A stretch of DNA of 64,000 nucleotides from an uncultured Mycoplasmatota bacterium (GTDB taxonomy: Bacteria > Bacillota_I > Bacilli_A > RF39 > UBA660), in contig URPE01000002.1 of NCBI GenBank assembly GCA_900549625.1, forward strand, positions 66,885 through 130,884, in the 5' to 3' direction. The notes under the pieces are model-generated. The model had not been told where the DNA came from, did no database searches, and saw only the letters and a program-made list of their open reading frames with translations. Below are positions 24,142 to 43,600 of this stretch, piece by piece. A program made the position numbers and the translations under genes. Position 1 is the stretch's first letter. Each line of letters starts with the position of its first letter.

Positions 24142-26052
24142 CTATAAAGTCTCCAAAGAATCAATATTTCCTTGAAAGAAAGAAGTTCTATTTCTCTCTT
24201 CATTAGAATTACTATTAGTTATAGGTGCCTGCTCTATTGTAGCACTAGCCCCACCCATAATATCACTAGATATCTCTTCATTTAAATTAGTATTACTTTC
24301 CCAATAACTTGAAACATCACAACTAGATGAATATGGCCTTGGATTAGGCATTTCCATTTTAATAATCATTGGAATTTTAAAAGCACTACCAAAAGAAACA
24401 CAAGTACCAGGTTGTAAAATTTTCATTTTTTCAATAACATCTTGACTAATATTAGGAAGCATCTCCTCGATATATTTTATATCCTTAGGGTGTGTCATTT
24501 TAAAAATCAAGAAATTAGAACATTGTGAAACAACTGTATCACTTATTTCCATTGGTCTTTGACTAATTATTCCTAAAATAACCCCATACTTTCTTCCTTC
24601 TTTAGCAATACGTTCAAATATATTATAACCAAGTAAATAAACATCTATATCTTTTTGAATATAACGATGGGCTTCCTCTAAAAACAAATGAAAAGGAATT
24701 GTTGCCCTATTAGCGTTCTCTTTAGAAAAATCAAAAATAAGTCTTGTATATATTTTTACAATTGCCTTAGATATATTATCATCAAGTCCTTCTAAGTTTA
24801 TATTAATTATCTGGGCTTTCTTATTATTTTTACTAACTAATTTAGTAACAAACTCTCCCATCGTAACAGCTTTATCAGAAGAAAATAACTTACCAACTGG
24901 TCCATGAATAATTGAATAAAGTCTTACCTTTAATAACTGAGCATCATCCATCAAATTACGGTTATTTTGAAACCCTTCACTTATTAAAGTAAATTCTAAA
25001 GCCCGAGAAAAATCCATTAAAGAATAAGCAACGTCTCCCATACTTTCATCAATTTCTAATGTCTCATCTATATATTTAAGAATATATTCAGTAATTAAAA
25101 CCTCTTCCCCAAACTTTCCTCTAGAGTCTATTTGGAAACATTCTGAGAAAGTTCTTGTATAACCAACGCCAGGTATCTTGGTATCTAAATTAAATTCTTT
25201 TGTATGACAAGTATGAATAATACTAAAAATATCATCTTTTTTCTTATCAGTTGTTTCACTACTATATAAAACAGTTATTAAAGCACTAGCAATAATATGA
25301 TTTTTATAACGATTAGATTCAGGTGTATCTAAAGAAAACATTTTAGCAAGCTTCATAGCTCGTTCTAATATTGTTAACTGTGAATGCTTATCTGCTTGTA
25401 AAAGAATAGCCATATCATCTACTTTAAGTAAATTCATCGGAATATTAATCATTTCATCATCATTATCTTTAATTCTTGACGTTACAAATTTATATTGATA
25501 ATAAGGACTAATATTAGAAATGCTTTTAAAGGCATTTTTATATTCCCCAAAAGAATCAAAGAAAAGCATATTTGCATTATATGAAACAGCAAATTTATTA
25601 CTTAATAAGTTTTGTACTACTCTTGCTACACCACATGATTTACCAGAACCAGTATTACCAAATATACATAAATGATTAGCAAGCATTTCATTAATCGAAG
25701 GACAAATATAAGAATCTTTATATGTTGCACTTTTACCCATTACAAAGTTTTTCTTAGATTGAACACCCATTAACTCTGTTCTTTCTTCTTCATTAATTGT
25801 TCTTATATTACTATTTAAACTAGCTTTTTTTAAAACACCATTGTAATAATGGCCATCAATAAATTCCCCTAAAAATTTAACCCTTATTTCATCTGATTTA
25901 ACTTCAGTGATTTCACTAAGAACTTTATGATCTCCATTTTCAAATATTAAATGTAAGTTAAGTAAATCAGCACTTACATCATCAGTCATCTTATTTTCAA
26001 TATACCCAATATTATCACTTAAATATAATATTTTTCCAAACATAGCAAGCAT
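24142..26052 (-). CDS. HerA/DUF87-family ATPase (FtsK-HerA superfamily)
   Basis: Walker A IFGNTGSGKS, Walker B LFLEEAHRY, C-terminal GRKYGVILGIISQRP HerA-type motif; stop codon 2 nt from tatD start. Confidence 0.6.
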   Translation of the reverse strand: MLAMFGKILYLSDNIGYIENKMTDDVSADLLNLHLIFENGDHKVLSEITEVKSDEIRVKFLGEFIDGHYYNGVLKKASLNSNIRTINEEERTELMGVQSKKNFVMGKSATYKDSYICPSINEMLANHLCIFGNTGSGKSCGVARVVQNLLSNKFAVSYNANMLFFDSFGEYKNAFKSISNISPYYQYKFVTSRIKDNDDEMINIPMNLLKVDDMAILLQADKHSQLTILERAMKLAKMFSLDTPESNRYKNHIIASALITVLYSSETTDKKKDDIFSIIHTCHTKEFNLDTKIPGVGYTRTFSECFQIDSRGKFGEEVLITEYILKYIDETLEIDESMGDVAYSLMDFSRALEFTLISEGFQNNRNLMDDAQLLKVRLYSIIHGPVGKLFSSDKAVTMGEFVTKLVSKNNKKAQIININLEGLDDNISKAIVKIYTRLIFDFSKENANRATIPFHLFLEEAHRYIQKDIDVYLLGYNIFERIAKEGRKYGVILGIISQRPMEISDTVVSQCSNFLIFKMTHPKDIKYIEEMLPNISQDVIEKMKILQPGTCVSFGSAFKIPMIIKMEMPNPRPYSSSCDVSSYWESNTNLNEEISSDIMGGASATIEQAPITNSNSNEERNRTSFFQGNIDSLETL

Positions 26053-28057: not shown

Positions 28058-31000
28058 TCAATGTTGTTCAAAAGAAGATAATAATTTTATTTTAACAAGT
28101 TTGGAATTATTAATTATAAACCCAAAGTCAATCGGTATTTCTTCACGATCTTCTCTAGTTATTTTAGCTACTTTAAACAAATTTTGTTCATCTATACCAC
28201 TGCCGACAAAAATGCCTTTTGACGTATCTGCACCAACTTTAAACCATTCATCATAGGCAAATGTTTTTATTACATCAGGATTGTCAACAATAACAAAAGA
28301 TACTAAATTCATTTGATTATTTTTTTGTAAAGTACCACTAAATTTCTTTTTTAACTCATCAGACAATTTATTCATAAAATCATTTATTCCACAAATAAAT
28401 ACACAAAGTTTTTTATGTTCAAGTAAACTAGCATCATTGAATCCATTACCTTGATAAATATCGTAAACCTTATCAACATAATCAGCTACTTTATTTATAA
28501 TTGAATCATAATTATTATTGTAAATTTTTTTCTCAATATCTACTATATCAAACTTTATATCATTACCGTTTAATATTAAAACATCATAAACATTTACATA
28601 TAAAATTTCCTTAATTAACGCCTGTAAGAAACCAGTAATTTTCTCTATTTCATAACTACTAATAAGTGAAATACTAGATTTTCCAAAATTATATTTTTCA
28701 GTTTCTAAAGTATTTTTATTTAAACCAATAGCCATACTAGTATCACGAGATATATTTTTAATTACATCATCAAAAGAAACACTATCAGGCAAAGATGGTA
28801 TAGGTAAAGCCTTATCTATATAAGTTTCACTTAATTCATTACCAAGATTTTTAATAAATTCCGAAAAATTATTTTTGTCTGTTGAATATGCGGTTTGAAA
28901 TTCATACACATTTTCTTTTTTAAATAAGCCACGGCCTTTAATCTTAGCCGGTGTTTTCCCTCTTATATTACCAAAAATATTAGCATAATCAGAATCATTA
29001 TTTTGTTGTAAAGCATATGTAAGTGAAATGTTTTGTTTAATTTTAACTCTAACACTTGTTTCACTACTAGCACTAATCACAAAATATATTCCATAACGAT
29101 AACTTTCTCTTAAAATAGAAGCAAGTTGTTCATTTAAATCTTCAAAATTTTCCAGAAATGATTCATAGTTATTAATAATTACAACAACTGCCGGAACATT
29201 TTCTCCGGAATTTTGATTATAGCCTTCATATGTACCTCCAAAAGAAGAAAATAACTTTTTACGTTCAACTAACAACTCATTAACCATTTTAAAGAGATTT
29301 ATAATTTTATCAGTATCATTTAAATATGCCACATCACCAACATGAGGAACATTTTTAAAAACACCCAATGTCTCAGAACCAAAATCTAAAATATAATAAT
29401 TAATTTCTAAAGGCGAATAACTCGTTATACCAGAGTAGATCATCGTGCTTATAAAAGTATCTTTGCCAGAGCCAGTTGTACCATAAAGAATAGCATTACC
29501 ATACTTTGTAAGTGGTATTGTTAACAAATATTGATTTTGTGTATTTGGATCATCATACTCGCCAATAACTAAATTAATATCAAAATCCTTCTTAAGATAA
29601 TTATATTTACTCTTTAAAGCATCAACATATATTTTATCTGGTATCTTATCTAGCCACAATTTATGTATTTTTATATTTTCAGATATGGCTAAATCACTTA
29701 AATATTTTACAATATTAGTTAGTTCTTCTCCTTGAGATTCAATTTTATAACTTTTAGTATTATCTTTGGACATTGTAACAAAACCAATATTATTAATTGC
29801 ATTAACTGAATTATCAGTTTGTTTTTTAAAAGTCACACTTGGATAATACTGTCCTCCAGCCCAAGCAGATTGTCCTAACGTAAATATTTCATCATAACCA
29901 ACTTGCAAGTAGAATCTACCTGTTTTTTTCAAAAATGCAGCATCAGGTTTCTTCAATACCTCCTGTGAATCTCCAGTATCTTGAACTTTCAAGCAAACTC
30001 TAAATCTAGTATTGGACCATATTTGTTGATCAACAACTCCACCAGGTTTTTGGGTAGCCAAAATTAAATGAATTCCTAAACTACGACCTACACGTGCCAC
30101 ACTTATAAGTTTATCCATAAAGTCAGGTTGTTGCTCCTTTAATTCTGCAAATTCATCGCTAATAATAAACAAATGTGAAATTGGCTCCTTACCAACTAAC
30201 CTTCCTTCTTTCCAAAGTTTTTGATATTTATAAATGTCCATTGTACTTTCATTCGTAACAACTTTTGCATCATTAAATTCTTTTTGTCTTCTCTTTACCT
30301 CACTTTCAATTGAAGCAAGTGATCTATTAAGTTCATTTCCATCTAAATTAGTGATTGTTCCCGCTAAATGTGGAAGAACATATTTATCATTTTTAAAAGC
30401 ACCGGCTAAACTACCACCTTTATAATCTATCAAAATAATTTGTACATCATAAGGACTATAATTAATTGCTAAAGATAAAACAAAAGTTATAATAAATTCT
30501 GATTTACCAGAACCAGTAGTTCCAGCAATCAAACCATGTGGTCCATGATAACGCTCATGTAAATCAAGACTAATTATTTCACCACTTTTTCCAATACCAA
30601 CTGGTGCTTGTAAGGAAAGAACAGGGTTACTCTTCTTCCATCTATCAAAAGAATTCAAATGTTCAACCTTACCTACTTGATACATTTCTAAATAATGATA
30701 AACGTCTGGCAAACTAGTTTGAGCATCATTCTTTAGTTCAATCTCAATATTTGCCAGTTCAACTGCGCAATTATATAGTTCTTCAACTGAAGATTCATCA
30801 ATAACAAACTGTTGATTACTCAAGTTAATAACACTATTAAAAATATAACAACCACTTTTATTCAAATTAATAAAATTTTTGCATTCATTTGGACAAGCAG
30901 AAACTCTATCCACAAGCATGACCATACTAAAACCAATATTTTCTCCATTACTCAAAACATTTTTGATTAGGTCATAGTTATCAACTGATTTTATTGCATC

Positions 31001-32653
31001 AGTAATAATTATATAATGTGGAATATTCCTAGCATCATTATCATTTTCTACTCTAGATTGAAAAACTTTTTCTAAATTATAAGCAATTTCTCTATATTCA
31101 TCATTACTAGAAGCAAAATAACGAAAAGTTTTATCGTTAGACCAACAATGTGGTAAAACTTTAACATAATCCCAAGCCGCCTCATTTTCCATAGATGTTA
31201 ATAAAACAATTTTAACCTCATCATAACTATATCTTGTAACAATTTGTAAAATAAGTCTATCTATAAAATCTTTGTTAATTTTATAATTGCCAACTATACC
31301 AGTTGCCACATTATCATAAAAAGAATATGTAATTGGAACATCTTTAAGAATTCTTTCCTTTTGTCCTAACTTATGCACCTCATCTAACAAATTATCTTCA
31401 TCTAAAGAAAAATGTTCTTCGGGATACTTTATTTCAATTTGCATTGGTAAATTGCCAATACCAATTGGTAAAGTCAAAAAATCATCATCAGTTATTCTTT
31501 TTTGCCAAAGTTTAACATTATGACCTTTAATTATATCTTGACATTGACTAATACTAAAATTATTTTCAATTAACCCTTGACGCTGTTTTTCTAATTCATT
31601 TAAAATTTCTTTTTCTTTTTTAGTCAAATATTTCATATACAATTTTTGACGTTTTCTTTCTAAATTTTTATTAGAAAATTTTTGATAGGCTCTTGTAAGC
31701 ATTGGCCATAGTAAACTACTAGCTAGCATAACGACACACATTGCAATGCTTGTCCAAGAATCATCAAAAGTACGTTTTCCAGATCCAATGGAATTCATTG
31801 TTGACATAAGCATTACCACTGACATCATAGACATTGTAAGCATTGGTCCAATCGTTAAAATTTCAGGAGTGCCATCATCATTAACTTTTGTTGGTGGCGC
31901 ATCAATTTGTAATATATAATGAGAAAGTTTTTGATAAAAATATGGCGTACGATAAAAATAATCCTTAGAAAAATTTAAACTTTCATCATTTAATTCAGCA
32001 TAATCTTCATTATAAGAAATTTTTTGTGGAACAACATTAACAAACGCAGCATTAAAGGCAAGTAATCCTCCAGGATTATTAATAAGAAAATAATCAATAC
32101 CATCTTGTTTCATTAAAATAAGTTTTAACCCATACCAGAAAATAATATCACCATATAAAATTCTTTGATGTTTATCCACTCTATTTTGATTAACAAAAAT
32201 TAATGAATTATCATCATTAACAGTTAAATAATAATAATTATCTTTCTTATTTATTGTAAAAGCAACCTCACTTATACCACCTAAATTATAACAAATTTCA
32301 TTTTTAGAAGAATTACCCACATGAATAACACTTTCATTATTAACACCAAATTCCTTATAAGAATTATCATAAACTGGTGAACAATATAAATAGTATTTTT
32401 CATGTCGAAAATTATTTTGTAAAGAATAGAAATGATAATTTTGTAGTATAACATTTGGTATCATAATATCTTGGTTATCAACAATAAAAGCATCATCATT
32501 GCTTATTAGTTTCCACCCATCACTTGAAGCTTCTATATTAACCATGTTTATCTTACGTCCATTTTCATAATTGGTAATCCAATAATTACCTACAACATTT
32601 TCTGGAAGTTTAAACACATTTAACTTATTTTCTTTAATAATTACTATTTCCAT
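28058..32653 (-). CDS. essC: type VIIb secretion FtsK/SpoIIIE-family ATPase EssC/YukB
   Basis: 1531 aa; N-terminal FHA-like domains, TM segments, three P-loop domains (GTTGSGKSE, GTTGSGKD). Confidence 0.85.
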   Translation of the reverse strand: MEIVIIKENKLNVFKLPENVVGNYWITNYENGRKINMVNIEASSDGWKLISNDDAFIVDNQDIMIPNVILQNYHFYSLQNNFRHEKYYLYCSPVYDNSYKEFGVNNESVIHVGNSSKNEICYNLGGISEVAFTINKKDNYYYLTVNDDNSLIFVNQNRVDKHQRILYGDIIFWYGLKLILMKQDGIDYFLINNPGGLLAFNAAFVNVVPQKISYNEDYAELNDESLNFSKDYFYRTPYFYQKLSHYILQIDAPPTKVNDDGTPEILTIGPMLTMSMMSVVMLMSTMNSIGSGKRTFDDSWTSIAMCVVMLASSLLWPMLTRAYQKFSNKNLERKRQKLYMKYLTKKEKEILNELEKQRQGLIENNFSISQCQDIIKGHNVKLWQKRITDDDFLTLPIGIGNLPMQIEIKYPEEHFSLDEDNLLDEVHKLGQKERILKDVPITYSFYDNVATGIVGNYKINKDFIDRLILQIVTRYSYDEVKIVLLTSMENEAAWDYVKVLPHCWSNDKTFRYFASSNDEYREIAYNLEKVFQSRVENDNDARNIPHYIIITDAIKSVDNYDLIKNVLSNGENIGFSMVMLVDRVSACPNECKNFINLNKSGCYIFNSVINLSNQQFVIDESSVEELYNCAVELANIEIELKNDAQTSLPDVYHYLEMYQVGKVEHLNSFDRWKKSNPVLSLQAPVGIGKSGEIISLDLHERYHGPHGLIAGTTGSGKSEFIITFVLSLAINYSPYDVQIILIDYKGGSLAGAFKNDKYVLPHLAGTITNLDGNELNRSLASIESEVKRRQKEFNDAKVVTNESTMDIYKYQKLWKEGRLVGKEPISHLFIISDEFAELKEQQPDFMDKLISVARVGRSLGIHLILATQKPGGVVDQQIWSNTRFRVCLKVQDTGDSQEVLKKPDAAFLKKTGRFYLQVGYDEIFTLGQSAWAGGQYYPSVTFKKQTDNSVNAINNIGFVTMSKDNTKSYKIESQGEELTNIVKYLSDLAISENIKIHKLWLDKIPDKIYVDALKSKYNYLKKDFDINLVIGEYDDPNTQNQYLLTIPLTKYGNAILYGTTGSGKDTFISTMIYSGITSYSPLEINYYILDFGSETLGVFKNVPHVGDVAYLNDTDKIINLFKMVNELLVERKKLFSSFGGTYEGYNQNSGENVPAVVVIINNYESFLENFEDLNEQLASILRESYRYGIYFVISASSETSVRVKIKQNISLTYALQQNNDSDYANIFGNIRGKTPAKIKGRGLFKKENVYEFQTAYSTDKNNFSEFIKNLGNELSETYIDKALPIPSLPDSVSFDDVIKNISRDTSMAIGLNKNTLETEKYNFGKSSISLISSYEIEKITGFLQALIKEILYVNVYDVLILNGNDIKFDIVDIEKKIYNNNYDSIINKVADYVDKVYDIYQGNGFNDASLLEHKKLCVFICGINDFMNKLSDELKKKFSGTLQKNNQMNLVSFVIVDNPDVIKTFAYDEWFKVGADTSKGIFVGSGIDEQNLFKVAKITREDREEIPIDFGFIINNSKLVKIKLLSSFEQH

Positions 32654-32665
32654 ATACTCACCTCC

Positions 32666-32920
32666 CTAATACAAAATTAATTTAGAACCATTTTTTATAG
32701 AACTATATCTTACAAACTGTGCTTCATCAATAACGTTACCACTAACTCTATCATATAATCTCTTACAGCCATCATCAACAAAGGCATGATTACTTAGTTC
32801 TTCCACCATCTTAATAATTAAACTTTTAACAGTACCAACTTTTTTCCTAATAGGAATATACATATCATACTCTTCATCTATTATTGGCACTATAATTGTA
32901 ACTAAAATTTTATCCTTCAT
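32666..32920 (-). CDS. esaB: ubiquitin-like T7SS protein EsaB/YukD
   Basis: 84 aa, beta-grasp-like pattern, immediately upstream of essC. Confidence 0.5.
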   Translation of the reverse strand: MKDKILVTIIVPIIDEEYDMYIPIRKKVGTVKSLIIKMVEELSNHAFVDDGCKRLYDRVSGNVIDEAQFVRYSSIKNGSKLILY

Positions 32921-32970
32921 ATTGTCACTCCCCTTATAAATATTAAAATTATATTTATTAAAAAAGTATT

Positions 32971-33948
32971 TTATCTCGTACGATTATTATAATTCCCAAA
33001 ATTTATAGAATCCACAAAATTTTCACTAAGTTCATCTAAATAGTCATTTTGTTTTAATTTATTTAACCATTTTTTGGGAATGTTTTCTCTTCCATATATA
33101 ATGCCATTAATTGAACCAGTAATTGCTCCAATTGTATCAGTATCATCACCTAAATTAATAGCAGAAATAACAGCAGACTCATAAGAGTCATTTTGTATAG
33201 TACACCATAAACTTGCCTCCAATGAATCGACAACATACCCAGAAGATTTAACTTCTGAAATATCCAAAAATTTTATATCACCATTTAAAATTCTTTGATA
33301 TGCCTTAATACTATCAGCTGAATAATATTTAACATAGTCATTATTTTTAAGTAAATCTAAAGCCTCAATTTTATCAACATTGTCAAGTAACGAAGAAACA
33401 TAATCTGAAAATATCTTACAACCAAGTTTACTTATTTCATGTGCATGAGTTAACGCAGAAGCTTGATTAATTATTGAAATGTTTTCGCTTTCTGAATAAT
33501 TAGAATATTTCAAATAATATACAAAAGGTAAAATTCTCATTAATGAGCCATTACCATTTTCGGTTATTCTCTTCATACCACAATCAACAGCATTAATTCC
33601 GTTTTTAAAATTCAAAATTGCGTTTCTAGTAGATATTCCAATATCAAATAATTCACCAGTAGCAGTATATTTTGCGTAATCTACCCATTCGGTAAATCTA
33701 TACATTATATCATTAAAATCAATTCTTCCTTTTATAACAATAGAATCCATTGTTGCAATCATAAGTGATGTGTCATCACTCCAAGTTCCTTCTGGAACGT
33801 CATGACTTCCAAAACCAAACATTCCTTTAACAGGATTTTTTTGTAATATTTTTCTACTTAAAAATTCCACAGGAACACCAAGTGCATCACCAACAGCAAA
33901 CCCTAGTATTCCAGCTTTCATCTTTTCATTCATTTTTATCACCATCAC
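32971..33948 (-). CDS. ADP-ribosylglycohydrolase (ARH/DraG/Tri1-like), predicted immunity protein for the adjacent ART toxin
   Basis: N-terminal GILGFAVGDALGVPVEF ARH signature, 325 aa, C-terminal GDDTDTIGAITGS metal-site motif. Confidence 0.7.
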   Translation of the reverse strand: MMVIKMNEKMKAGILGFAVGDALGVPVEFLSRKILQKNPVKGMFGFGSHDVPEGTWSDDTSLMIATMDSIVIKGRIDFNDIMYRFTEWVDYAKYTATGELFDIGISTRNAILNFKNGINAVDCGMKRITENGNGSLMRILPFVYYLKYSNYSESENISIINQASALTHAHEISKLGCKIFSDYVSSLLDNVDKIEALDLLKNNDYVKYYSADSIKAYQRILNGDIKFLDISEVKSSGYVVDSLEASLWCTIQNDSYESAVISAINLGDDTDTIGAITGSINGIIYGRENIPKKWLNKLKQNDYLDELSENFVDSINFGNYNNRTR

Positions 33949-34157
33949 TTAATTTGCCTGGGACTATCATTAGTAATATTATTTTTATTATTATTATTAT
34001 TAGAATCAGATGGAATTGAAAGACCTCTAGAGGCTAATAGCATGTCCCTTTTCCTCAAAAGTTCTTCTATTTCTTTTTTTATCTCAATATCACTCTTGCC
34101 TTCAGTATCGAATGTAAATTTAACATCAAGAGCTTTTTCTTTTTCATTATCAATCAT
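33945..34157 (-). CDS. small hypothetical protein (70 aa) between toxin and ARH gene
   Basis: ORF overlapping ARH start by 4 nt. Confidence 0.3.
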   Translation of the reverse strand: MIDNEKEKALDVKFTFDTEGKSDIEIKKEIEELLRKRDMLLASRGLSIPSDSNNNNNKNNITNDSPRQIK

Positions 34158-34176
34158 ACATATCTCCTATCTATAT

Positions 34177-37152
34177 TTATTTTACCACACATTTAACTAT
34201 TATTTTTTCAAGACCATTAATATCTTTTACAGGTGATGACACATCTACTATTGTTAATTCAGTATTCCTTGCTAATAAAAATTCATTTTCCAAGTTATAG
34301 AAATCAGAAATTTGATTTATATAAGCACCTGGAGTACCCTTTTTAGCAATTATATCTAAAACTATTGGACAATCCATTCTTTTAGCAAAGGAAGTACTAT
34401 ATGCAGGAGAGGTACTTACATAACTTAAATCCTTAAAAGGTTTACCGATAAGAGTTTCCAAAGTAGTTGAAATTCTTGGCAAATCATTTTCAGCAATACC
34501 ATCAAACAAAGCGGCATAAACTGAGCTTTGAGCTGTAAAAGCAGATAAATTCACTCCCCTATATAATTCAGTTGCCTGCTCCAATCCGCCATATTTCATA
34601 ATAGCAGAATCAATATTTTTAACAAGTTTTTTTGCATCAAAACCATTTATATTACCATGAACATTTTTGGCCCTTATTTGACCATTTATAATGCTATACG
34701 CACTACTACTATAAATCCTTAAAGCAGAAATCTCGTCAGTTGTAAGCCGTGATAAAAATCTTCCCTGAATAGTATTATTCAAAAAATTCTGAAAAGAGGC
34801 TTTTGAAGCTCCAGATAATTTTCCAAGAACTTGTTGAACGGAGTATCCATGAACAAACATGTCATGAATAATTTTGCCTGCATCTCCATAATATGAAGAC
34901 ATTTGCCTTTTTGCTTCATCAAGCAATATACTAAATGAAATATAATTAGTTGGTTCACCAAAAGAATTTAAATCTGAAACATTTTCAGATAAGTTTTCTA
35001 TAGTTTGATTATTATTTAATTTCTGTAAATTCATAGTTTCAGTTATATCTAAAGAATCAAGTTGATTGTTACTAATATTATCATTTATATCAGATAAATT
35101 CATGGTTATCGTAACATCATTAGAAATATCTTGTTGTCTAGAAAATTTAGTATTAGCAATCATAGAAGGAGTATTTAATATACCAGCAGTAATACCTCCG
35201 TATAATGCACTTTGTATTACATTTCCTTTTAATTCATTTCCATCTATTTTCTCTCCAGTTATTAATGATTTTACTTCTTCTCCAAATATCTCTTGCCCGC
35301 CTTCTTCTAAGCCTTCTTTTGCCATTGAATGTATATAACTTTTGAAACTATCAACTGGTACATCATTAAAAAAACTTATTCCACCTAAAAATTTCTCGGT
35401 TATACTTTCTGTTGCTCCTGATATTACCCCATATGTTAAGGCTTGACTATTTGTATATCCTTCTGTTAACATTTCATGATAACTATTGCCTCCAGCTGAT
35501 ATTCCTAATAAGGCCGAACCTATTGCTCCTCCTCCTGCCATACTTAATGCTATCGATGGAGCCATATTTCCTATTCCTTGACTTATTGCATAATTATCTT
35601 TTAAATATGCTCCTGTATAATCTCCACTTGCTAAGGCTTGACTTAAATACATATTTTCGTATTCTTCTATTGTATTTGCTCTACTTGGACTTTCTCCTGT
35701 TATAAATGCTCCAGCTGCACTTATTGCATGTTCTATTCCACTTGCACTTGATTGTATTCCACTATCTATCCCTTTTCCTGTTACTTTTAAATGATTGGTA
35801 ATTGCTTCTTTTATATTTTCTTCCTTTGAAAGAGTATTTAAATATGCCTGTGCTTTCTCTTTACCTATTGCTTGATTTACTGTATTCTCTATTACTTTTA
35901 AATATTCATTAGCTTCATATACACCATATTTATCATTTAAATAATTATATATCTTACTATATGTTTCATCTGTCCTTGCTACATGTATTAAATTTAACAA
36001 TTGTTTTGTATGATCATCAACCGAATATGCTTCATTACTTAATTTTGATATTCTCTCTTCTAATCCCCTTGCATATTCTAATTCACTTACTTGTCCATAT
36101 CTTTTACAATATTCTTCATAACTTGTAAAATAATTGACTCCTTCGACATTTTCTATTGTTATTTTACTACTATCTACTTTATCTTTATTTTGATATTTAT
36201 CATAATCACTTAATACAGTTAAACATTCATATTTTGCTACATCTATATTTTGTTCTATTTGTTCTATGTTTGTTTCACAACTTGTTTTTAATTCCTTTAA
36301 TTCACTTATATATTTCTTGTAATCTTCTAATGTTCCAAACTTTTCTTTTATTACCTTTTGTGATTCTTTACTCAACATACTTATATCATCTATTGTTCTT
36401 AAATGATACTTTGCTCGACTAAATTCGTTTTCTATTGTTTCATATTCTTTTAACTCTTCATCTACTGCACTTATATATTGTTTCATTAATGTTTTTTGTG
36501 ATTCTAATGGATTTGTATATTCTTGATATGTTTCATTATACACTTTATCATCTATTACTAACTCTGGTGTTTCTACTTTGCTATCAATAAAACTTAATAA
36601 ACTTTTTAAAACATTTCCTATCTTTGATATCTTTGTTGCTTTACCTACCTCTTCATCACTTGTATTTATTATCTCATTATCACTTATTCTTCTATCTGTT
36701 TCTTTTATAAACTTACTTATATATTTTGACATTTCTTGTGTATTAGAACTTTGTTCGTTATATGTGTTTATCTCAAATAATTCTGTATCATTAACACTAG
36801 ATGAATCTATAGACATACTTATCTTACTTGCTACTATACTTGCATTGCTTTCTTTTACAATACCACCTTTTTCACTAACTTTGTTTTCTAAGCCTTCTAT
36901 ATCATTACAATATTCTTGCATATAAGAAACTATATTATTTATATTATTAGAAATATCATTATAATTACTTTTTATCTTCTTTAATAATCCATTAAAAGCT
37001 GATATATCATCATAATTGTCTGTTTGATAATTACTTATATCAAATACTTCCTTTTTATTAAGATAGTACTTACTATAATTTTCTAAAGTGTCAATAACTT
37101 TTCTTATATTATCCGTGTTTACTTCAGTTATCACCTTCATGAGAAAAACCAA
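34177..37152 (-). CDS. LXG-type polymorphic toxin with C-terminal C3/VIP2-like (R-S-E class) mono-ADP-ribosyltransferase domain
   Basis: C-terminal ELYRGV (Arg), YVSTSPAYSTS (STS) and ENEFLLARNTEL (E-x-E ARTT loop) motifs; N-terminal helical secretion domain shared with 37631..44467. Confidence 0.7.
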   Translation of the reverse strand: MVFLMKVITEVNTDNIRKVIDTLENYSKYYLNKKEVFDISNYQTDNYDDISAFNGLLKKIKSNYNDISNNINNIVSYMQEYCNDIEGLENKVSEKGGIVKESNASIVASKISMSIDSSSVNDTELFEINTYNEQSSNTQEMSKYISKFIKETDRRISDNEIINTSDEEVGKATKISKIGNVLKSLLSFIDSKVETPELVIDDKVYNETYQEYTNPLESQKTLMKQYISAVDEELKEYETIENEFSRAKYHLRTIDDISMLSKESQKVIKEKFGTLEDYKKYISELKELKTSCETNIEQIEQNIDVAKYECLTVLSDYDKYQNKDKVDSSKITIENVEGVNYFTSYEEYCKRYGQVSELEYARGLEERISKLSNEAYSVDDHTKQLLNLIHVARTDETYSKIYNYLNDKYGVYEANEYLKVIENTVNQAIGKEKAQAYLNTLSKEENIKEAITNHLKVTGKGIDSGIQSSASGIEHAISAAGAFITGESPSRANTIEEYENMYLSQALASGDYTGAYLKDNYAISQGIGNMAPSIALSMAGGGAIGSALLGISAGGNSYHEMLTEGYTNSQALTYGVISGATESITEKFLGGISFFNDVPVDSFKSYIHSMAKEGLEEGGQEIFGEEVKSLITGEKIDGNELKGNVIQSALYGGITAGILNTPSMIANTKFSRQQDISNDVTITMNLSDINDNISNNQLDSLDITETMNLQKLNNNQTIENLSENVSDLNSFGEPTNYISFSILLDEAKRQMSSYYGDAGKIIHDMFVHGYSVQQVLGKLSGASKASFQNFLNNTIQGRFLSRLTTDEISALRIYSSSAYSIINGQIRAKNVHGNINGFDAKKLVKNIDSAIMKYGGLEQATELYRGVNLSAFTAQSSVYAALFDGIAENDLPRISTTLETLIGKPFKDLSYVSTSPAYSTSFAKRMDCPIVLDIIAKKGTPGAYINQISDFYNLENEFLLARNTELTIVDVSSPVKDINGLEKIIVKCVVK

Positions 37153-37266
37153 CCTTTTAAACGTCTAATGTTTCTAAAGAGGCTACTGCTTGTTCATATT
37201 CTTTTTTTGCTTTCTTTATTTCTGTCGTTTGATATATATTCATTAATTTATTTTTAAACTCTTTTC
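35159..37266. repeat. 2108-bp direct repeat, copy A (identical to 42474..44581)
   Basis: position-by-position identity with offset 7315; identical spurious antisense ORFs in track. Confidence 0.9.
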
Positions 37267-37504
37267 CTAAATCACTTTCATAACCCTTAAATAACACTTT
37301 ATCAATATCTTCATGATTAAATAAAATATTATTATCAGTAGCAAGAATACCTTCTGGATACAATGCTCCAAGATAATCATAAACTAAATTATCATTATCC
37401 AAAGTGGGATAAGCATAACCAATTACCATTAATGGCTTTTTACCATTTTTTAATAACACAACACTACCTAAATTTAAAAAATCTTTATCATTCATAATAT
37501 ACAA
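37157..37504 (-). CDS. DUF4176-like small T7SS/LXG-associated protein
   Basis: 115 aa with GSVVLLKNGKKPLMVIG and YDYLGALYPEG pattern; directly upstream of LXG gene. Confidence 0.45.
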   Translation of the reverse strand: MYIMNDKDFLNLGSVVLLKNGKKPLMVIGYAYPTLDNDNLVYDYLGALYPEGILATDNNILFNHEDIDKVLFKGYESDLGKEFKNKLMNIYQTTEIKKAKKEYEQAVASLETLDV

Positions 37505-37555: not shown

Positions 37556-37582
37556 AAAGAAAAAAAATCTAGATGCCTAGAT
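37556..37582 (-). terminator. Rho-independent terminator downstream of giant LXG gene
   Basis: ATCTAG-atgc-CTAGAT hairpin with flanking T-run on the minus strand. Confidence 0.55.
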
Positions 37583-37630
37583 TAATTTTTCTTTGTTTAA
37601 AATATTAATTCAAAATAATATTTATATTAG

Positions 37631-40600
37631 CTAACTAGCTTTTTCAATTTGAAGGTCATTAATTTTAATATCTATCTTTTCTAACAAAGAATCTATATCA
37701 ATATCTATCTTATTAATTCTTTGAGTCTTCTCATTGGTAACATCAAACTTTCTATTTTCATCCTTAATAGTGTTCTTTATAAATAATAAATTGTCAATGT
37801 CGTCTGAATTTTTAATGGCTTCATTTAATAAGTTAGTAACTCTATCAGCTGAAAAATATTTAGTTATTAGTTCACTATCCGTTGCATTTCTATATCCACT
37901 TCTATTATTTTCATGTAATGTTAATATTGATTTTATCAATTCAACATTTCCAGTACTTTTATACTCTTTTATCAATTTATCTATTTTAATACTTTCTGAC
38001 TGTGCTAGTTTAGACTTATTAATATACACTAATGGAACATTAAAATCTACACTTGCTTTATATGCATTTTGTTTCTGTTCAGCACTCATCTCTTCAAATA
38101 CAACAACATAATCTGGTTGAATATTAGCAAGACGACCTTCACCAGTCAAATTTGTTCTTTCTAAATTAAATTCATTGTGTGTATGTCTAGTCTCATTCAT
38201 AACATCTTTTCCAGGTAAATATAATAGCTGGCGTTGACTTTTTATTACATATCCATCATTCATTGTAAAAATATCATAAGGTGCCATCATATTCATTTGT
38301 TCATTTGAAAAACTATTAAAGCCTATTACAACACCTTTACCCTTAACCATAGCCATTCCCATATTATTATTAGAAATCAAAGAACAGCATATACCATGAT
38401 TAGCAGTTCTACTAGACAAATTCCATGAATCAAAATAACTATCATTTATTATAGGCATTCCGCCATAGTTAGTATAGGTACTCTGAATTAGCATTTGAAA
38501 ATCACTTTCTGGTTCATAAACAGGAATTTTTTTCCCTTCATACTCGACATAATTGGTTATTTTAGTAGGATTAAACAAAGTTGCTTTTAGGCTTTTTGTA
38601 TAGACTTGTTTAATTGCGTTTATTATATTTAATGTATCATTCATATTATAACTGCTTGTTGATTCTAAACTAGAATAAACATTTTTAGCATTTTCAAGAG
38701 ATGATATATTTAAAATATCATTGATTTTACTCAAATAGGTTGTTGCAATTCCATTAGCATCTAAATCTTTAATTGATGAAAAATTACTGCCATACATTCT
38801 ATACAATTCAGTTGCGTCCTCTAAACTCATAGAAAAATATTTATTAAAAATTAAATTTTGAACCTCTGTAACATTAGTAGCATGCTTCAACAATGAATCA
38901 CACTTTTCAGCTAATTTAATATTATAATTTCTTAAATTATAATTATCTGGAGTAACAAGACTTCTCTCTCTCTTAACTTCTTGATTATTACCATTCACAA
39001 CAGAAAACAAATCGACTTGTTTTAAAATAATATTTCTTGCATTTTCCAAATCTGTTAAATCATGTATATTTAACAATTCAGCATTCACATCATTTTTTAG
39101 AAGATAATTTAACATAAAAGACATTTTTTGATCAGCTACTATTGAACTGGCAGAAGAATTATCATTAATAACAGATTGAACAAATAAATCAAATTTATCA
39201 TTATTACTCTTAAGTTGATTAATCTGCTCTACAACATCATAATATTTACTTAACTTAGTTAAGAATTTATCCCCAAACTTATAAATAGCTTCTTCAAATA
39301 AAGAATAATTAAATGTTGATAAAACAAATCTATTTTTTTCTTTAATTTTAGATAATACATTTAGCTTTTCATCATTAATCAAACCTTTTTTATATGCTTC
39401 AGCAAAAAGAGATTTTTGAGGTATAGTAGCTTCTTTTAACAAATTATTAATTTGGTTATTTCCAATATCATTTATAAACTTATCAATCTTATCGGTTAAT
39501 AATTTTTTGTTTTCAGCAGATAAATTTTCGTAAATAAGTTCAGCATCAGTATACATAAAATTATTTAATATTAAATCATTACTTTTTATCATTTCATTAA
39601 ACTTACTATTTAAATCTTTTCGTTTTGAAAATGAAAGTAAAAATCCCAAAAAATCATTATCAGCATTATTTAAAATATAATCAATATACTGTGGTTCTAA
39701 ACTATCAAAAAAGCCATCAAAATATTTTAAATTATCTGCATCGATAGACTTTCTAAATTTATTATCACTTATAATTTCTTCTATTAATTTAAATTTTGTA
39801 TCTTTATTTTTAACAAGTCCACGAAACAACATATAATATTTATCAGTACTTTCCAATGAATCTAATATTTCAAGTTGTTGAGTAGTTTCATAATGACTAA
39901 GTAATTCTGAAAAATAATGATACTGATAAGATGAATAAGAAGTACGATTAAAATTAAAGCCTTCAATCATATTTTTTATTTTTTCTAAATCAAGCTTTGT
40001 AAAAGCTTCTTTTCTAGCTAATTCTAAAACTGTTTCAGTATTAATATTATCATAAAACTTATTTATATCACCATTTTCTTTTAGTAAACTCAAAAAATCT
40101 ATTGTCTCATTATGACTAGAGTAATTATTCATTATATTTATTAATTGAGGAAATTCTCTAAAAGCTTCTATATACTCTTGTTCAAGTCCAAGTTGCATGA
40201 CATATTCATAATTAAAAGCGACTAATTTTTGCTTTTTTGAAAGATAATTTATTACCTTTTTATAAGCTTCTTCATTATAATTTGCCATTGCCCTTAAGTG
40301 GTCACCAGATATACCACGACATTCCTTAGATTTTATTTTATCTATCACAATATCTACCAATTGTTCACTATTGAATAATCCAATTGTTGAAAATAGTGTA
40401 TCAATTGGTATATTGTCTTTTATTTTCTGTTTACCAATAGGATCTGCAGCTTCATACAAATCAATTAAAGTACCTTCATAACCCATTTGGATACTCTTAA
40501 AATCATTGGCAATCAATTTATCAATAACAGCATCTATTGCCTTTTGATTTCCAAGTTTAGCTAAATCAGAATATTTTTCACTTGGTAACTCAAGGGCAGC

Positions 40601-43600
40601 AGCAACTATAGTTTCGTCACTCATTAATTCATAAATTGCACTATCAAACAGCAATTTAGAACTTTCCTTATCAAAATTTCCATTCAATCCACTAGCTAAA
40701 ATATCCGAATAAACCCCATTGAAAGTTTCATTAAGATAAATTTTCGTTTTTAAAGACAAAGAATTTTTTAATCCATTGTCACGAAGTAATTCATATCGAA
40801 TACTTTTATCAAATCCTTCTAAATAATCTGCAATTTTCGTATCTAAAAAAATAGAATCGGATTTGTTTTTACATAATTCAAGTATCTTGTTTTTAACAGC
40901 ATTTTTATACAAGCTTTGCTCATCAACATTCAAAAGACTTAAGTAATTTTTAAGTGCAAAAGAATTATTAATTAATGTATTGTACGCATCAGGATTTTCT
41001 ATTAATTTTCCAATAATATCTTTATCTCTAATAGATGATAATAAAGTAGGAAATTCACTACTGCTAATCATTTCAGAATAAAATGGGCTATTTTCTATAA
41101 ATTGCATTTTATAGTTATCATTACTTAAATTTTTAACAAATTCAAAAAATTGTTTTGGTGTTTCTTCATATAAAATATTTTTATATTTATTAAGTACATT
41201 TTTCTGAATATCATCAGATAGATTTTTAATTTCAAATAAGTTATTTTTCAAAAAATCAAAACCACCCAATTTTTCTAAAATAATATCAAAAGATTTTACG
41301 GAGAAATCTTGATTAAAAATCATATTAGAATTATTTTTAAAAAAGTCTTCGTTAGAATTCAAAAATTTTTTTTGAGTATCTAATGATGATGATTTAAATA
41401 ATTCAAAAACTTTATTGTTGCCTATATTTTCTATATCACTTTCTGATAACGACAATAGTAGTTCATTAGGTGTAAAGTTATTTGAGTTTGGCGTTGATTC
41501 ATTAAATGTATTTATAGTATCTTTAGTAACAGCCCCAGCTGCATCCACATTACTTGATGAATAAAAATTTTCAAAAAAATAATCAGCTTGTTTTGAAAAA
41601 GAGATTGATAATGACTTTAAACTACTAGAAATATCATCTAGCTTACCATGAAATAATTTTCTTGATTTAGCATTTTTTAACATTTCATATTCTTTTTTAG
41701 AAATTTCTTCATACCGTAAATTTTGATGTTCATCAACTTTTAACCCTAAATAAACTATTTCCGCATTTTGCCTATCAAAATTATAATTTCCCTTACAAAC
41801 AACAGCGCCATCATCTTTAAATCTGTAACTAAAGTTTTCAATATTAGCTTCATCAATATTAAATTTCACAGCAACCTGCGTTTCTGCAACTGACATTAAA
41901 TTGATAGATACCTGTTCTAAAGTAGGAATCCCTCCAAAAAAATAAGCTTTTCTTTCTCCTAAAGAACTAAAATATCCAGAAGATTTAACGTAACCAGAGT
42001 CTAAAATTGCTTGAGCACTATTTTCACTAGTTATATGGTATAAACCATTATCAAGTATATTTTGTTTAACATTAATATTACTACTAATAGGAGAATATTT
42101 GACTTTATTTTCCATAGACAAAACAACCGCTGGAAAAAAGACTGTAGATTTAGGCAAGTTAAGAATAGCTTTTTTAAGAGTTATATCATTTACATTATTA
42201 GCCAAAACGTTTTTAGTAATATTATCAATTTTTTTACTTAAAGTTTGGCTTATATCAGCAATACTAAAATTATCATTAATTATATTTTTATAATTATCAT
42301 AAATAAGCATTGTATTATCGTTTATTAACTCTTTATTACTTTTTGTAGCATAAAAAGAATCACTAACCCCATTTTCCATATAAATTTTCTTTATGTCTTC
42401 AGCTAATAACTCAATATCTAATATATTATTTTCAATAGCATTATTGACTTTTAGTTTTGTAATATTTGACGATATCATAGAAGGAGTATTTAATATACCA
42501 GCAGTAATACCTCCGTATAATGCACTTTGTATTACATTTCCTTTTAATTCATTTCCATCTATTTTCTCTCCAGTTATTAATGATTTTACTTCTTCTCCAA
42601 ATATCTCTTGCCCGCCTTCTTCTAAGCCTTCTTTTGCCATTGAATGTATATAACTTTTGAAACTATCAACTGGTACATCATTAAAAAAACTTATTCCACC
42701 TAAAAATTTCTCGGTTATACTTTCTGTTGCTCCTGATATTACCCCATATGTTAAGGCTTGACTATTTGTATATCCTTCTGTTAACATTTCATGATAACTA
42801 TTGCCTCCAGCTGATATTCCTAATAAGGCCGAACCTATTGCTCCTCCTCCTGCCATACTTAATGCTATCGATGGAGCCATATTTCCTATTCCTTGACTTA
42901 TTGCATAATTATCTTTTAAATATGCTCCTGTATAATCTCCACTTGCTAAGGCTTGACTTAAATACATATTTTCGTATTCTTCTATTGTATTTGCTCTACT
43001 TGGACTTTCTCCTGTTATAAATGCTCCAGCTGCACTTATTGCATGTTCTATTCCACTTGCACTTGATTGTATTCCACTATCTATCCCTTTTCCTGTTACT
43101 TTTAAATGATTGGTAATTGCTTCTTTTATATTTTCTTCCTTTGAAAGAGTATTTAAATATGCCTGTGCTTTCTCTTTACCTATTGCTTGATTTACTGTAT
43201 TCTCTATTACTTTTAAATATTCATTAGCTTCATATACACCATATTTATCATTTAAATAATTATATATCTTACTATATGTTTCATCTGTCCTTGCTACATG
43301 TATTAAATTTAACAATTGTTTTGTATGATCATCAACCGAATATGCTTCATTACTTAATTTTGATATTCTCTCTTCTAATCCCCTTGCATATTCTAATTCA
43401 CTTACTTGTCCATATCTTTTACAATATTCTTCATAACTTGTAAAATAATTGACTCCTTCGACATTTTCTATTGTTATTTTACTACTATCTACTTTATCTT
43501 TATTTTGATATTTATCATAATCACTTAATACAGTTAAACATTCATATTTTGCTACATCTATATTTTGTTCTATTTGTTCTATGTTTGTTTCACAACTTGT

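Follow-up and report, generated by a model that had tools for sequence, protein, structure and literature searches.

Type VII toxins have been catalogued mainly with LXG models and models of known toxin domains. Proteins of the DUF4176 family act as chaperones (Ltc) that bind the disordered middle region of type VII toxins bound for the target-cell cytoplasm (2025 study, PMC12478183). Here we analyze a 64,000-nucleotide stretch of DNA (the window) from an uncultured Mycoplasmatota bacterium (assembly GCA_900549625.1, contig URPE01000002.1, positions 66,885 to 130,884), which carries on its minus strand a gene for a giant protein of 2274 residues within a type VIIb secretion locus. It is highly probable that this protein is a type VII substrate with a swapped cassette. 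The full proposal, namely, an exported polymorphic type VII effector with a new enzyme-like module, the micro-protein partner of which (inhibitor or immunity factor) is missing from the locus, has in our judgment about an even chance of being correct. Because the protein escapes both LXG and toxin-domain models, searches that use them would overlook it, together with relatives that reach 3,725 aa.

Layout of the giant gene

The gene is a single uninterrupted open reading frame (ORF) on the minus strand at 37631..44467, with 2278 codons counted from a TTG at 44467 and 2274 from the likely ATG; the giant 2278-aa protein named in an earlier reading of the same DNA (the original prediction) is thus the longer of the two counts. 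Its parts are listed below, with positions in the window; related proteins and loci are numbered P and L, respectively.

37631..44455, minus strand: gene for the giant putative effector, 2274 aa from the likely ATG at 44455
42473..44455, minus strand: shared trafficking region, residues 1-661, ~100% identical to a 991-aa paralog
42104..42472, minus strand: Asn/Ile/Lys-rich linker, residues 662-784, low-confidence or disordered (pLDDT <50 over the first 31 residues of the modelled fragment)
41669..42103, minus strand: middle domain, residues ~785-929, with LYH at 805-807, KAYFF at 836, AVKF at 862, and YRFKDDG at 877 (core pLDDT 75-95)
38876..41560, minus strand: Leu/Asn/Lys-rich scaffold, residues 966-1860 (phmmer: P0036, 5e-259; P0038, 1e-200; P0041, 4e-121)
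37634..38875, minus strand: C-terminal module, residues 1861-2274 (AF2 pLDDT 81.8, pTM 0.79; family profile)

The interval 37631-42473 corresponds to residues 662-2274 and the stop codon, i.e., the part not common to the 991-aa paralog, which bears out the extension of about 1600 aa predicted beyond the shared N-terminus. The 6.8-kb frame, at 26% G+C, contains no internal stop codon. The exact 2274-aa protein (P0001) is present in the public protein collection (NCBI, ENA) on 2-3 contigs of up to 183 kb; the ORF is thus no artefact of a single assembly, and disruption of the frame, considered earlier as a way in which the prediction might fail, was not encountered. Pfam, NCBIfam, and PADLOC searches with the whole protein and fragments yielded nothing above threshold, in line with the earlier remark that no toxin motif is recognisable. 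Searches of PDB sequences by phmmer and profiles (whole protein; N-terminal, module, and middle-domain profiles) gave chance matches only; among these, a match to the Mycoplasma arthritidis mitogen (E = 0.05) was rejected as chance, the conserved motif not being aligned. The description of the extension as largely helical and Asn/Lys-rich survives for composition (residues 966-1860 are 11% N, 10% K, and 12% L) and is not borne out for helicity, the modelled spans 754-965 and 1841-2274 both having beta-rich cores. The two short peptide segments singled out as candidates turned out to be the conserved cores of two separate domains.

A type VIIb locus

The secretion genes and other features that bear on the giant gene are the following.

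28058..32653, minus strand: EssC, type VIIb secretion ATPase, 1531 aa (TIGR03928, 1026 bits, cut-off 778; FtsK_SpoIIIE domains)
34177..37152, minus strand: 991-aa paralog, the same N-terminus followed by an ADPrib_exo_Tox ADP-ribosyltransferase (ART) toxin (2.2e-26)
37157..37504, minus strand: DUF4176 (Ltc-type chaperone) gene, 115 aa, between the two effector paralogs (Pfam PF13780, 9.5e-23)
37558..37583, minus strand: AT-rich hairpin of 7 bp, then U8 (folding z-score -3.9), kept in L002

The EssC protein is of the Firmicutes type (TIGR03928), and WXG100/ESAT-6-like ORFs lie downstream of its gene, with WXG100 matches for ORFs of 218 and 97 aa. The 96-97-aa WXG100/ESAT-6-like ORFs 3' of EssC do not adjoin the giant gene, and none matched a Lap-family model. 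On the basis of EssC, the WXG100 genes, the DUF4176 gene, and the ART-toxin paralog, the locus clearly belongs to a type VIIb system. Models of EssA, EssB, and EsaA found no match among the ORFs examined, which may mean that the system has a divergent membrane core.

Residues 1-661 comprise a helical head and, at ~515-560, a hydrophobic stretch rich in Gly (hydropathy maximum at 529-548), and they are homologous to the N-terminus of P0041. The label LXG, which the original prediction had attached to the protein, could not be upheld: LXG models (Pfam PF04740, NCBIfam) matched neither the whole protein nor residues 1-208 at E<=10, though the secretion context is clearly type VIIb. The same models also miss the related N-termini of P0041, P0082, P0133, and L042, and an N-terminal profile found nothing among PDB sequences. 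By analogy, the Gly-rich hydrophobic stretch is likely the site of the DUF4176 chaperone; the layout, with an adjoining DUF4176 gene, such a stretch, and a low-confidence linker, is that of a DUF4176/Ltc-dependent toxin.

The gap between the stop codon of the giant gene and DUF4176 measures 126 nt and holds no ORF of >=20 aa on the gene's strand. The hairpin and U8 run within it likely form a weak intrinsic terminator, which a simple/consensus terminator scan did not call because the hairpin is too AT-rich. The earlier description of a terminator followed by the DUF4176 gene, with no immunity ORF, is therefore consistent with the sequence of the gap.

An exchanged cassette

A Hadza gut-metagenome contig (L002) from a sister strain is syntenic with the window, and blastn gave 96.7-98.8% DNA identity except in two cassettes.

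37601..41566, minus strand: cassette 1, residues ~964-2274 plus 30 nt, no second gene; interior unique relative to L002, sharp junctions at 41567 and 37600
32933..35115, minus strand: cassette 2, ART toxin C-terminus, 70-aa ORF, and ADP-ribosylglycohydrolase; replaced in L002

In L002 the slot of cassette 1 is filled by a C-terminus of 458 aa, which shows a C..H..D pattern and matches Transglut_core weakly, together with an overlapping 93-aa ORF; that of cassette 2 contains a middle domain with a papain-like C-terminus and an ORF of 234 aa. Of the 126-nt gap, 30 nt are unique before the flank common with L002 begins, and homology resumes at the AT-rich hairpin and U8 ahead of DUF4176. Flanks in common and a different interior lead us to conclude that the extension is an allele in a classic polymorphic-toxin slot, which arrived without a second gene.

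A 2.1-kb segment, made up of the 5' end of the effector gene and the leader upstream of it, is present as two direct copies, at 42474..44581 and 35159..37266. Each copy is ~98.8% identical to both copies in L002. Such copies are a ready substrate for recombination and, likewise, for metagenome mis-assembly.

The C-terminal module

The module was modelled with AF2 from 11 sequences over residues 1841-2274, and in the model an alpha/beta core rich in beta structure lies between an N-terminal part and a tail that are both helical. The family profile matches the giant protein at E = 2.7e-152 over residues 1861-2273. An initial word-index search for homologues of the 1,612-aa extension returned 4 proteins only, low-complexity words having overwhelmed it, a yield corrected by an exhaustive profile search of 1.84 billion representatives, in which 1,042 proteins were found at E<=1e-3 and 551 at E<=1e-30. 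In species-representative genomes the family occupies 39 loci, from gut Bacillota bins that include Ca. Faecimonas, Ca. Coprovivens, 'uncultured Bacilli', 'uncultured Tenericutes', and Clostridia; most of the proteins at these loci are stand-alone and have about 1,100-1,660 aa. Two motifs stand out.

38387..38398, minus strand: HGxC motif, H2020-G-I-C2023, 93-99% conserved across 149 family members
38171..38191, minus strand: T-R-H-T-H-N-E motif, residues 2089-2095, then E2099-R2100, invariant in alignments A1 and A2

Across the 149 members, conservation reaches 84-100% at Y1997, W2011, H2020, G2021, C2023, G2045-F2046, D2061, T2089-R-H-x-H-N-E2095, E2099, R2100, and P2114, with E2095 and R2100 at 100%; the giant protein keeps Y1997, W2011, H2020, G2021, C2023, D2061, T2089-E2095, E2099, R2100, and P2114, and TRHTHNE is identical in 7/7 giant relatives. 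In view of these near-invariant His, Cys, Asp, His-x-His-Asn-Glu, and Glu-Arg residues, the module is probably an enzyme, and probably a metal- or thiol-dependent one. With the module model as query, Foldseek matched nothing in PDB and BFVD beyond designed helical repeats or noise. The order and spacing of the conserved residues do not appear to fit any of the motif patterns considered (papain-like, clan CD, LAS/M23, metallo-beta-lactamase, cupin, and 2OG-oxygenase). The module thus lacks a match in Pfam, NCBIfam, PADLOC, PDB sequences, and Foldseek PDB/BFVD, which favors the new effector class offered earlier as one option.

The scaffold and the terminal module behave as one conserved unit, shared by P0036, P0038, and P0041, each of which lies in a type VII context. 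A comparison of the helical parts of the module with residues 966-1860 gave no significant sign of internal repeats. The giants examined all lie in such contexts. P0041 (2554 aa) shares the head, middle domain, scaffold, and module of the giant protein, and its gene has two DUF4176 genes on the upstream side and WXG100 on the downstream side; P0038 (3014 aa) sits after WXG100 genes; and P0036 (3508 aa), near EssC, bears an extra papain-like C-terminus and has a 233-aa partner that shows homology to the L002 ORF of 234 aa. Shorter effectors, P0133 and P0082, adjoin WXG100 genes, the latter also with DUF4176. A zinc-protease-like HEFGH motif occurs at residues ~1480-1490 of P0046 and a Transglut_core match (7.9e-08) at residues 1350-1442 of P0037; these extra internal domains indicate that such effectors can stack several enzymatic modules.

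A micro-ORF in related loci

A search for co-varying small ORFs, which the original prediction had proposed, gave a positive result in the relatives and a negative one here. Six other distinct type VII loci with the module carry a Lys/Glu-rich micro-ORF of 42-56 aa directly downstream.

L044, 8668..8805: Lys/Glu-rich micro-ORF directly after the module effector
L045, 16999..17127: the same
L048, 16038..16190: the same
L050, 18230..18373: the same
L051, 9994..10164: the same
L053, 9140..9268: the same

In L044, L045, L048, and L050, an ORF of 42-50 aa lies at or just past the end of the giant gene (<=~20 nt from the stop codon) and is preceded by a Shine-Dalgarno-like sequence; exceptions in placement are that the L048 micro-ORF overlaps the gene end and that of L050 comes after the 233-aa partner. 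These four are homologous, with the consensus M-x-E-E-K-K-K-L-L-E-K-L-K-x-D-K-E-K-L-I-x-I-K-K. The more distant loci L051 and L053 have Lys/Glu-rich ORFs of 56 and 42 aa at the same position, 1-3 nt past the stop codon. No Pfam match is on record for the micro-ORFs. A six-frame search with a hidden Markov model (HMM) found no micro-ORF in the window, nor in the stand-alone loci described below. The letters KEKLI in the 126-nt gap were considered as a micro-ORF remnant and rejected, as they are part of the flank common with L002. The dedicated micro-ORF in six loci suggests that the module needs a partner when fused to a secretion domain. To our knowledge, a micro-protein of 42-56 aa would be an unusually small immunity factor for a type VII secretion system.

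Proposed mechanism

We propose that the protein is built of four parts, a trafficking region, the recurrent middle domain, a ~900-residue scaffold, and a 410-residue alpha/beta module, and that the DUF4176/Ltc chaperone, whose gene lies between the two paralogs, probably stabilises the trafficking region (residues 1-661). Recombination would have put the scaffold, the module, and 30 nt in the place taken in the sister strain by a transglutaminase-like toxin and a small partner ORF. EssC would export the protein, and the terminal module would act enzymatically in the recipient cell. In the relatives, the 42-56-aa micro-protein would be the partner of the module, most simply an inhibitor or immunity factor, and in this strain that partner may have been lost or be encoded elsewhere. 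The orphan toxin protected elsewhere, another of the options listed earlier, remains compatible with what we found, i.e., six relatives with a micro-ORF, a window without one, and a sister-strain slot holding a toxin and a small ORF.

Several observations weigh against this proposal. The N-terminus is unmatched by LXG models, and the cargo of ~1,300 aa is much larger than typical toxin domains. No activity is assignable to the module, Foldseek PDB/BFVD and PDB-sequence profile searches having come back empty. There is no immunity candidate at the giant locus, which for a self-acting toxin would be lethal unless protection is provided elsewhere, and homology of the L051 and L053 micro-ORFs to the other four is not detectable. 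Most members of the module family are stand-alone proteins of 1,000-1,660 aa amid housekeeping genes with no type VII neighbours; one metagenome-assembled genome (MAG) has three module loci; and an HD domain follows the module in 48/130 long representatives. For these last reasons the module is not obviously harmful to its owner.

In one alternative, the effector would be non-toxic or directed at the host or environment, and the module would be an ordinary enzyme tolerated by its producer, as in the many stand-alone homologues; its export would serve some end other than the killing of bacteria, so that no immunity gene is needed. The stand-alone homologues amid housekeeping genes of many gut Bacillota bins, the MAG with three loci, the absence of an immunity ORF at the giant locus, and the origin of all loci in gut metagenome assemblies speak for it. 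The same slot, however, holds a toxin in the sister strain, and six related type VII loci keep the micro-ORF right after the gene, and we consider this alternative somewhat unlikely.

A further reading would allow both uses. The module would found a new enzyme superfamily with a resident form and an exported weapon form in gut Bacillota, a scheme that we regard as distinctly unlikely. The resident form would be a large cytoplasmic protein, often fused to an HD phosphohydrolase by which its product may be reversed or processed; in the exported form the HD domain would have been removed and a type VII head added, with the 42-56-aa micro-protein as restraint. This strain would then have the weapon but not its safety catch, and a resident paralog with an HD domain, or an orphan micro-ORF elsewhere in the genome, could protect it. 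No HD domain match was found anywhere in the window, and the module ends at the C-terminus of the giant protein. None of the 9 representatives of >2,000 aa has an HD domain. Loss of the HD domain alone as the mark of a toxin form was weakened as an idea by the 59/130 representatives that have the module at their extreme C-terminus, most without a recognisable secretion head; HD was found in 0 of those 59.

Stand-alone homologues have no signal peptides, and some of their subfamilies (L017, L020-L027) have conserved neighbours of their own. In the HD-bearing stand-alone subfamily (~1,620-1,660 aa) a conserved 75-87-aa ORF overlaps the 3' end (L021, 12189..12452), with the core L-T-N-E-E/Q-K-L-E-Y-L..L-I..E-Q-x-L-E. 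A downstream ORF of 155 aa is conserved in the 1,100-1,200-aa subfamily, and an upstream ORF of ~290-315 aa in the 1,330-1,360-aa subfamily. An hhalign comparison of the type VII micro-ORFs with the 75-87-aa ORFs gave no support for homology (probability 0.5%).

The recurrent middle domain

The middle domain recurs in other effectors. Residues 754-965 are 98% identical in P0002, and identity is 30-49% for the copies in P0041, in P0046, in the second L002 effector, and in L042, a distant type VII effector that has a transglutaminase-like C-terminus as well as a 98-aa ORF. Its invariant residues include H807, T809, G821, K836, FF, P844, AVK, R878, D882, and E909. In three diverged copies the best Pfam match, in the same register, is Tox-ART-HYD1 (PF15633), with E values of 0.051, 0.012, and 0.0014 and scores of 14.6, 16.6, and 19.7 bits, all under the 25-bit gathering threshold; the alignment covers only profile positions 1-31 of 97. 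In the H-Y-D signature, H807 and D882 are invariant, and the aromatic position is Tyr in the giant protein and Phe in most copies. The AF2 model (residues 754-965) has a strand-helix-strand order compatible with an ART fold. Foldseek with this model found nothing significant in PDB; the highest probability (0.23, E = 1.4) was for the ART-fold enzyme Tpt1 (8tg4_A). A word-index search with the domain came back empty without returning even the query itself and is uninformative on rarity.

These data bear on an alternative in which the middle domain is the real toxin, an ADP-ribosyltransferase of the ART-HYD1 type, and the long C-terminal part is an accessory for targeting or entry. ART-HYD1 toxins are known rRNA-modifying toxins (PMC8661411). 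The common best Pfam match in one register, the invariant His807 and Asp882, the beta-alpha-beta order, and the Tpt1 match all point in this direction. Nevertheless, every HMM score is below threshold, the Tpt1 match has the low probability given above, and the signature Tyr is Phe in most copies. Moreover, the C-terminal domains that follow it are of three unrelated kinds and each come with a matched small ORF of their own, no extra partner or immunity gene accompanies the middle domain, and the ART paralog works without it. We consider this alternative quite improbable. Because it precedes unrelated toxins that have small ORFs of their own, we take the middle domain to be a recurrent pre-cargo module, its ART ancestry being unproven, rather than the toxin.

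Unlikely alternatives: a decaying allele or a surface protein

In another account the gene is a stranded or decaying allele, its cargo recombined in without the partner, and is silent or being lost. The cassette does end 30 nt past the stop codon, and the micro-ORF of all six relatives is absent. A 6.8-kb stop-free frame at 26% G+C is, however, unlikely to survive without selection, all family-invariant residues are intact, and the identical protein occurs on several contigs; the account thus has only a slim chance of being correct. A structural, surface-exposed, or adhesin-like cargo (surface or adhesin-like cargo having been the remaining option of the original prediction) would suit the very large size and low-complexity composition but is very improbable indeed, given that there are no DNA tandem repeats, LPXTG motif, or convincing membrane helix, that the homologues lack signal peptides, and that the invariant polar residues of the terminal module resemble those of an enzyme.

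Neighboring genes

Immediately upstream of the giant gene are the following features.

44674..45426, minus strand: protein-kinase-like ORF, 250 aa (Pkinase, 2.7e-24)
45436..45894, minus strand: 152-aa ORF with two diverged ~70-aa repeats

Both ORFs are kept in the sister strain, and they agree with the kinase-like gene and tandem-repeat protein reported earlier at this position, the repeats of the 152-aa ORF being internal and diverged.

Downstream of the 991-aa paralog are a 70-aa ORF (33945..34157) and then an ADP-ribosylglycohydrolase gene (32971..33948). The layout of this ART cassette looks like a pair of toxin and reversing-enzyme immunity protein, and the arrangement of ART toxin, 70-aa ORF, and ADP-ribosylglycohydrolase resembles the Tre1/Tri1 type of toxin and immunity. 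An 84-aa ORF (32666..32920, minus strand) between the immunity-like genes and EssC is kept in L002 and L042; its position is the usual place of the small ubiquitin-like YukD/EsaB proteins, and it has no model match. Just past the WXG100 genes, a HerA/DUF87-type ATPase of 636 aa (24142..26052, minus strand) adjoins a TatD DNase gene.

Comparison with known systems

The locus connects a secretion system to an unannotated family of >1,000 protein clusters, for which the candidate catalytic residues offer an experimental handle, and to a conserved micro-protein gene, which may well be missed by annotation pipelines. The absence of a partner gene at this locus provides a natural test of whether such cargo needs immunity.

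Among described proteins, the LXG toxins of type VIIb systems (TelA and TelB of S. intermedius, with the small helical Lap targeting factors encoded beside them and the DUF4176 chaperones LtcA/LtcB) resemble the giant protein in lying at an EssC/WXG100 locus beside a DUF4176 gene, in joining a conserved N-terminus to a strain-variable C-terminus that is exchanged as a cassette, and in having a middle region between head and cargo (as in PMC12478183). They differ in that the N-terminus here is unseen by LXG models, the cargo of ~1,300 aa belongs to no known toxin family, and no immunity gene follows; the shared trafficking region has 661 aa, compared to the ~220-aa LXG domain of TelA (PMC12478183).

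Polymorphic toxin systems (Zhang et al. 2012, PMC3482391) have in common with the locus a trafficking domain, an optional pre-toxin domain, and a C-terminal cassette that varies, and the duplicated 2.1-kb N-terminal repeat could serve recombination as in such systems. Unlike them, the locus lacks the defining downstream immunity gene, and most homologues of its module stand alone outside a toxin context.

Tox-ART-HYD1 (PF15633), exemplified by the Photorhabdus Rhs toxin Tre23, which ADP-ribosylates 23S rRNA, shares with the middle domain the L-Y-H-x-T strand-helix motif that opens the domain and the invariant Asp882, and it is the best Pfam match of three diverged copies. In contrast to that family, the middle domain scores 14.6-19.7 bits against 25 with 31/97 profile positions aligned, has Phe for Tyr in most copies, occupies a mid-protein instead of a C-terminal toxin position, and has no cognate immunity gene.

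The proteins of gut Bacillota bins that combine helical repeats with the module (and in some cases HD) share the 410-aa module and the same invariant residues, with 25-35% identity to the giant protein in the genome loci. The stand-alone proteins among them differ from the giant protein in lacking a secretion head and middle domain and in having other small neighbouring ORFs, and 48/130 carry a C-terminal HD phosphohydrolase domain that the giant protein is without. We conclude that the effector is of a known polymorphic type VII kind and that its cargo family, the recurrent middle domain, the micro-ORF, and a secretion head invisible to LXG models are new.

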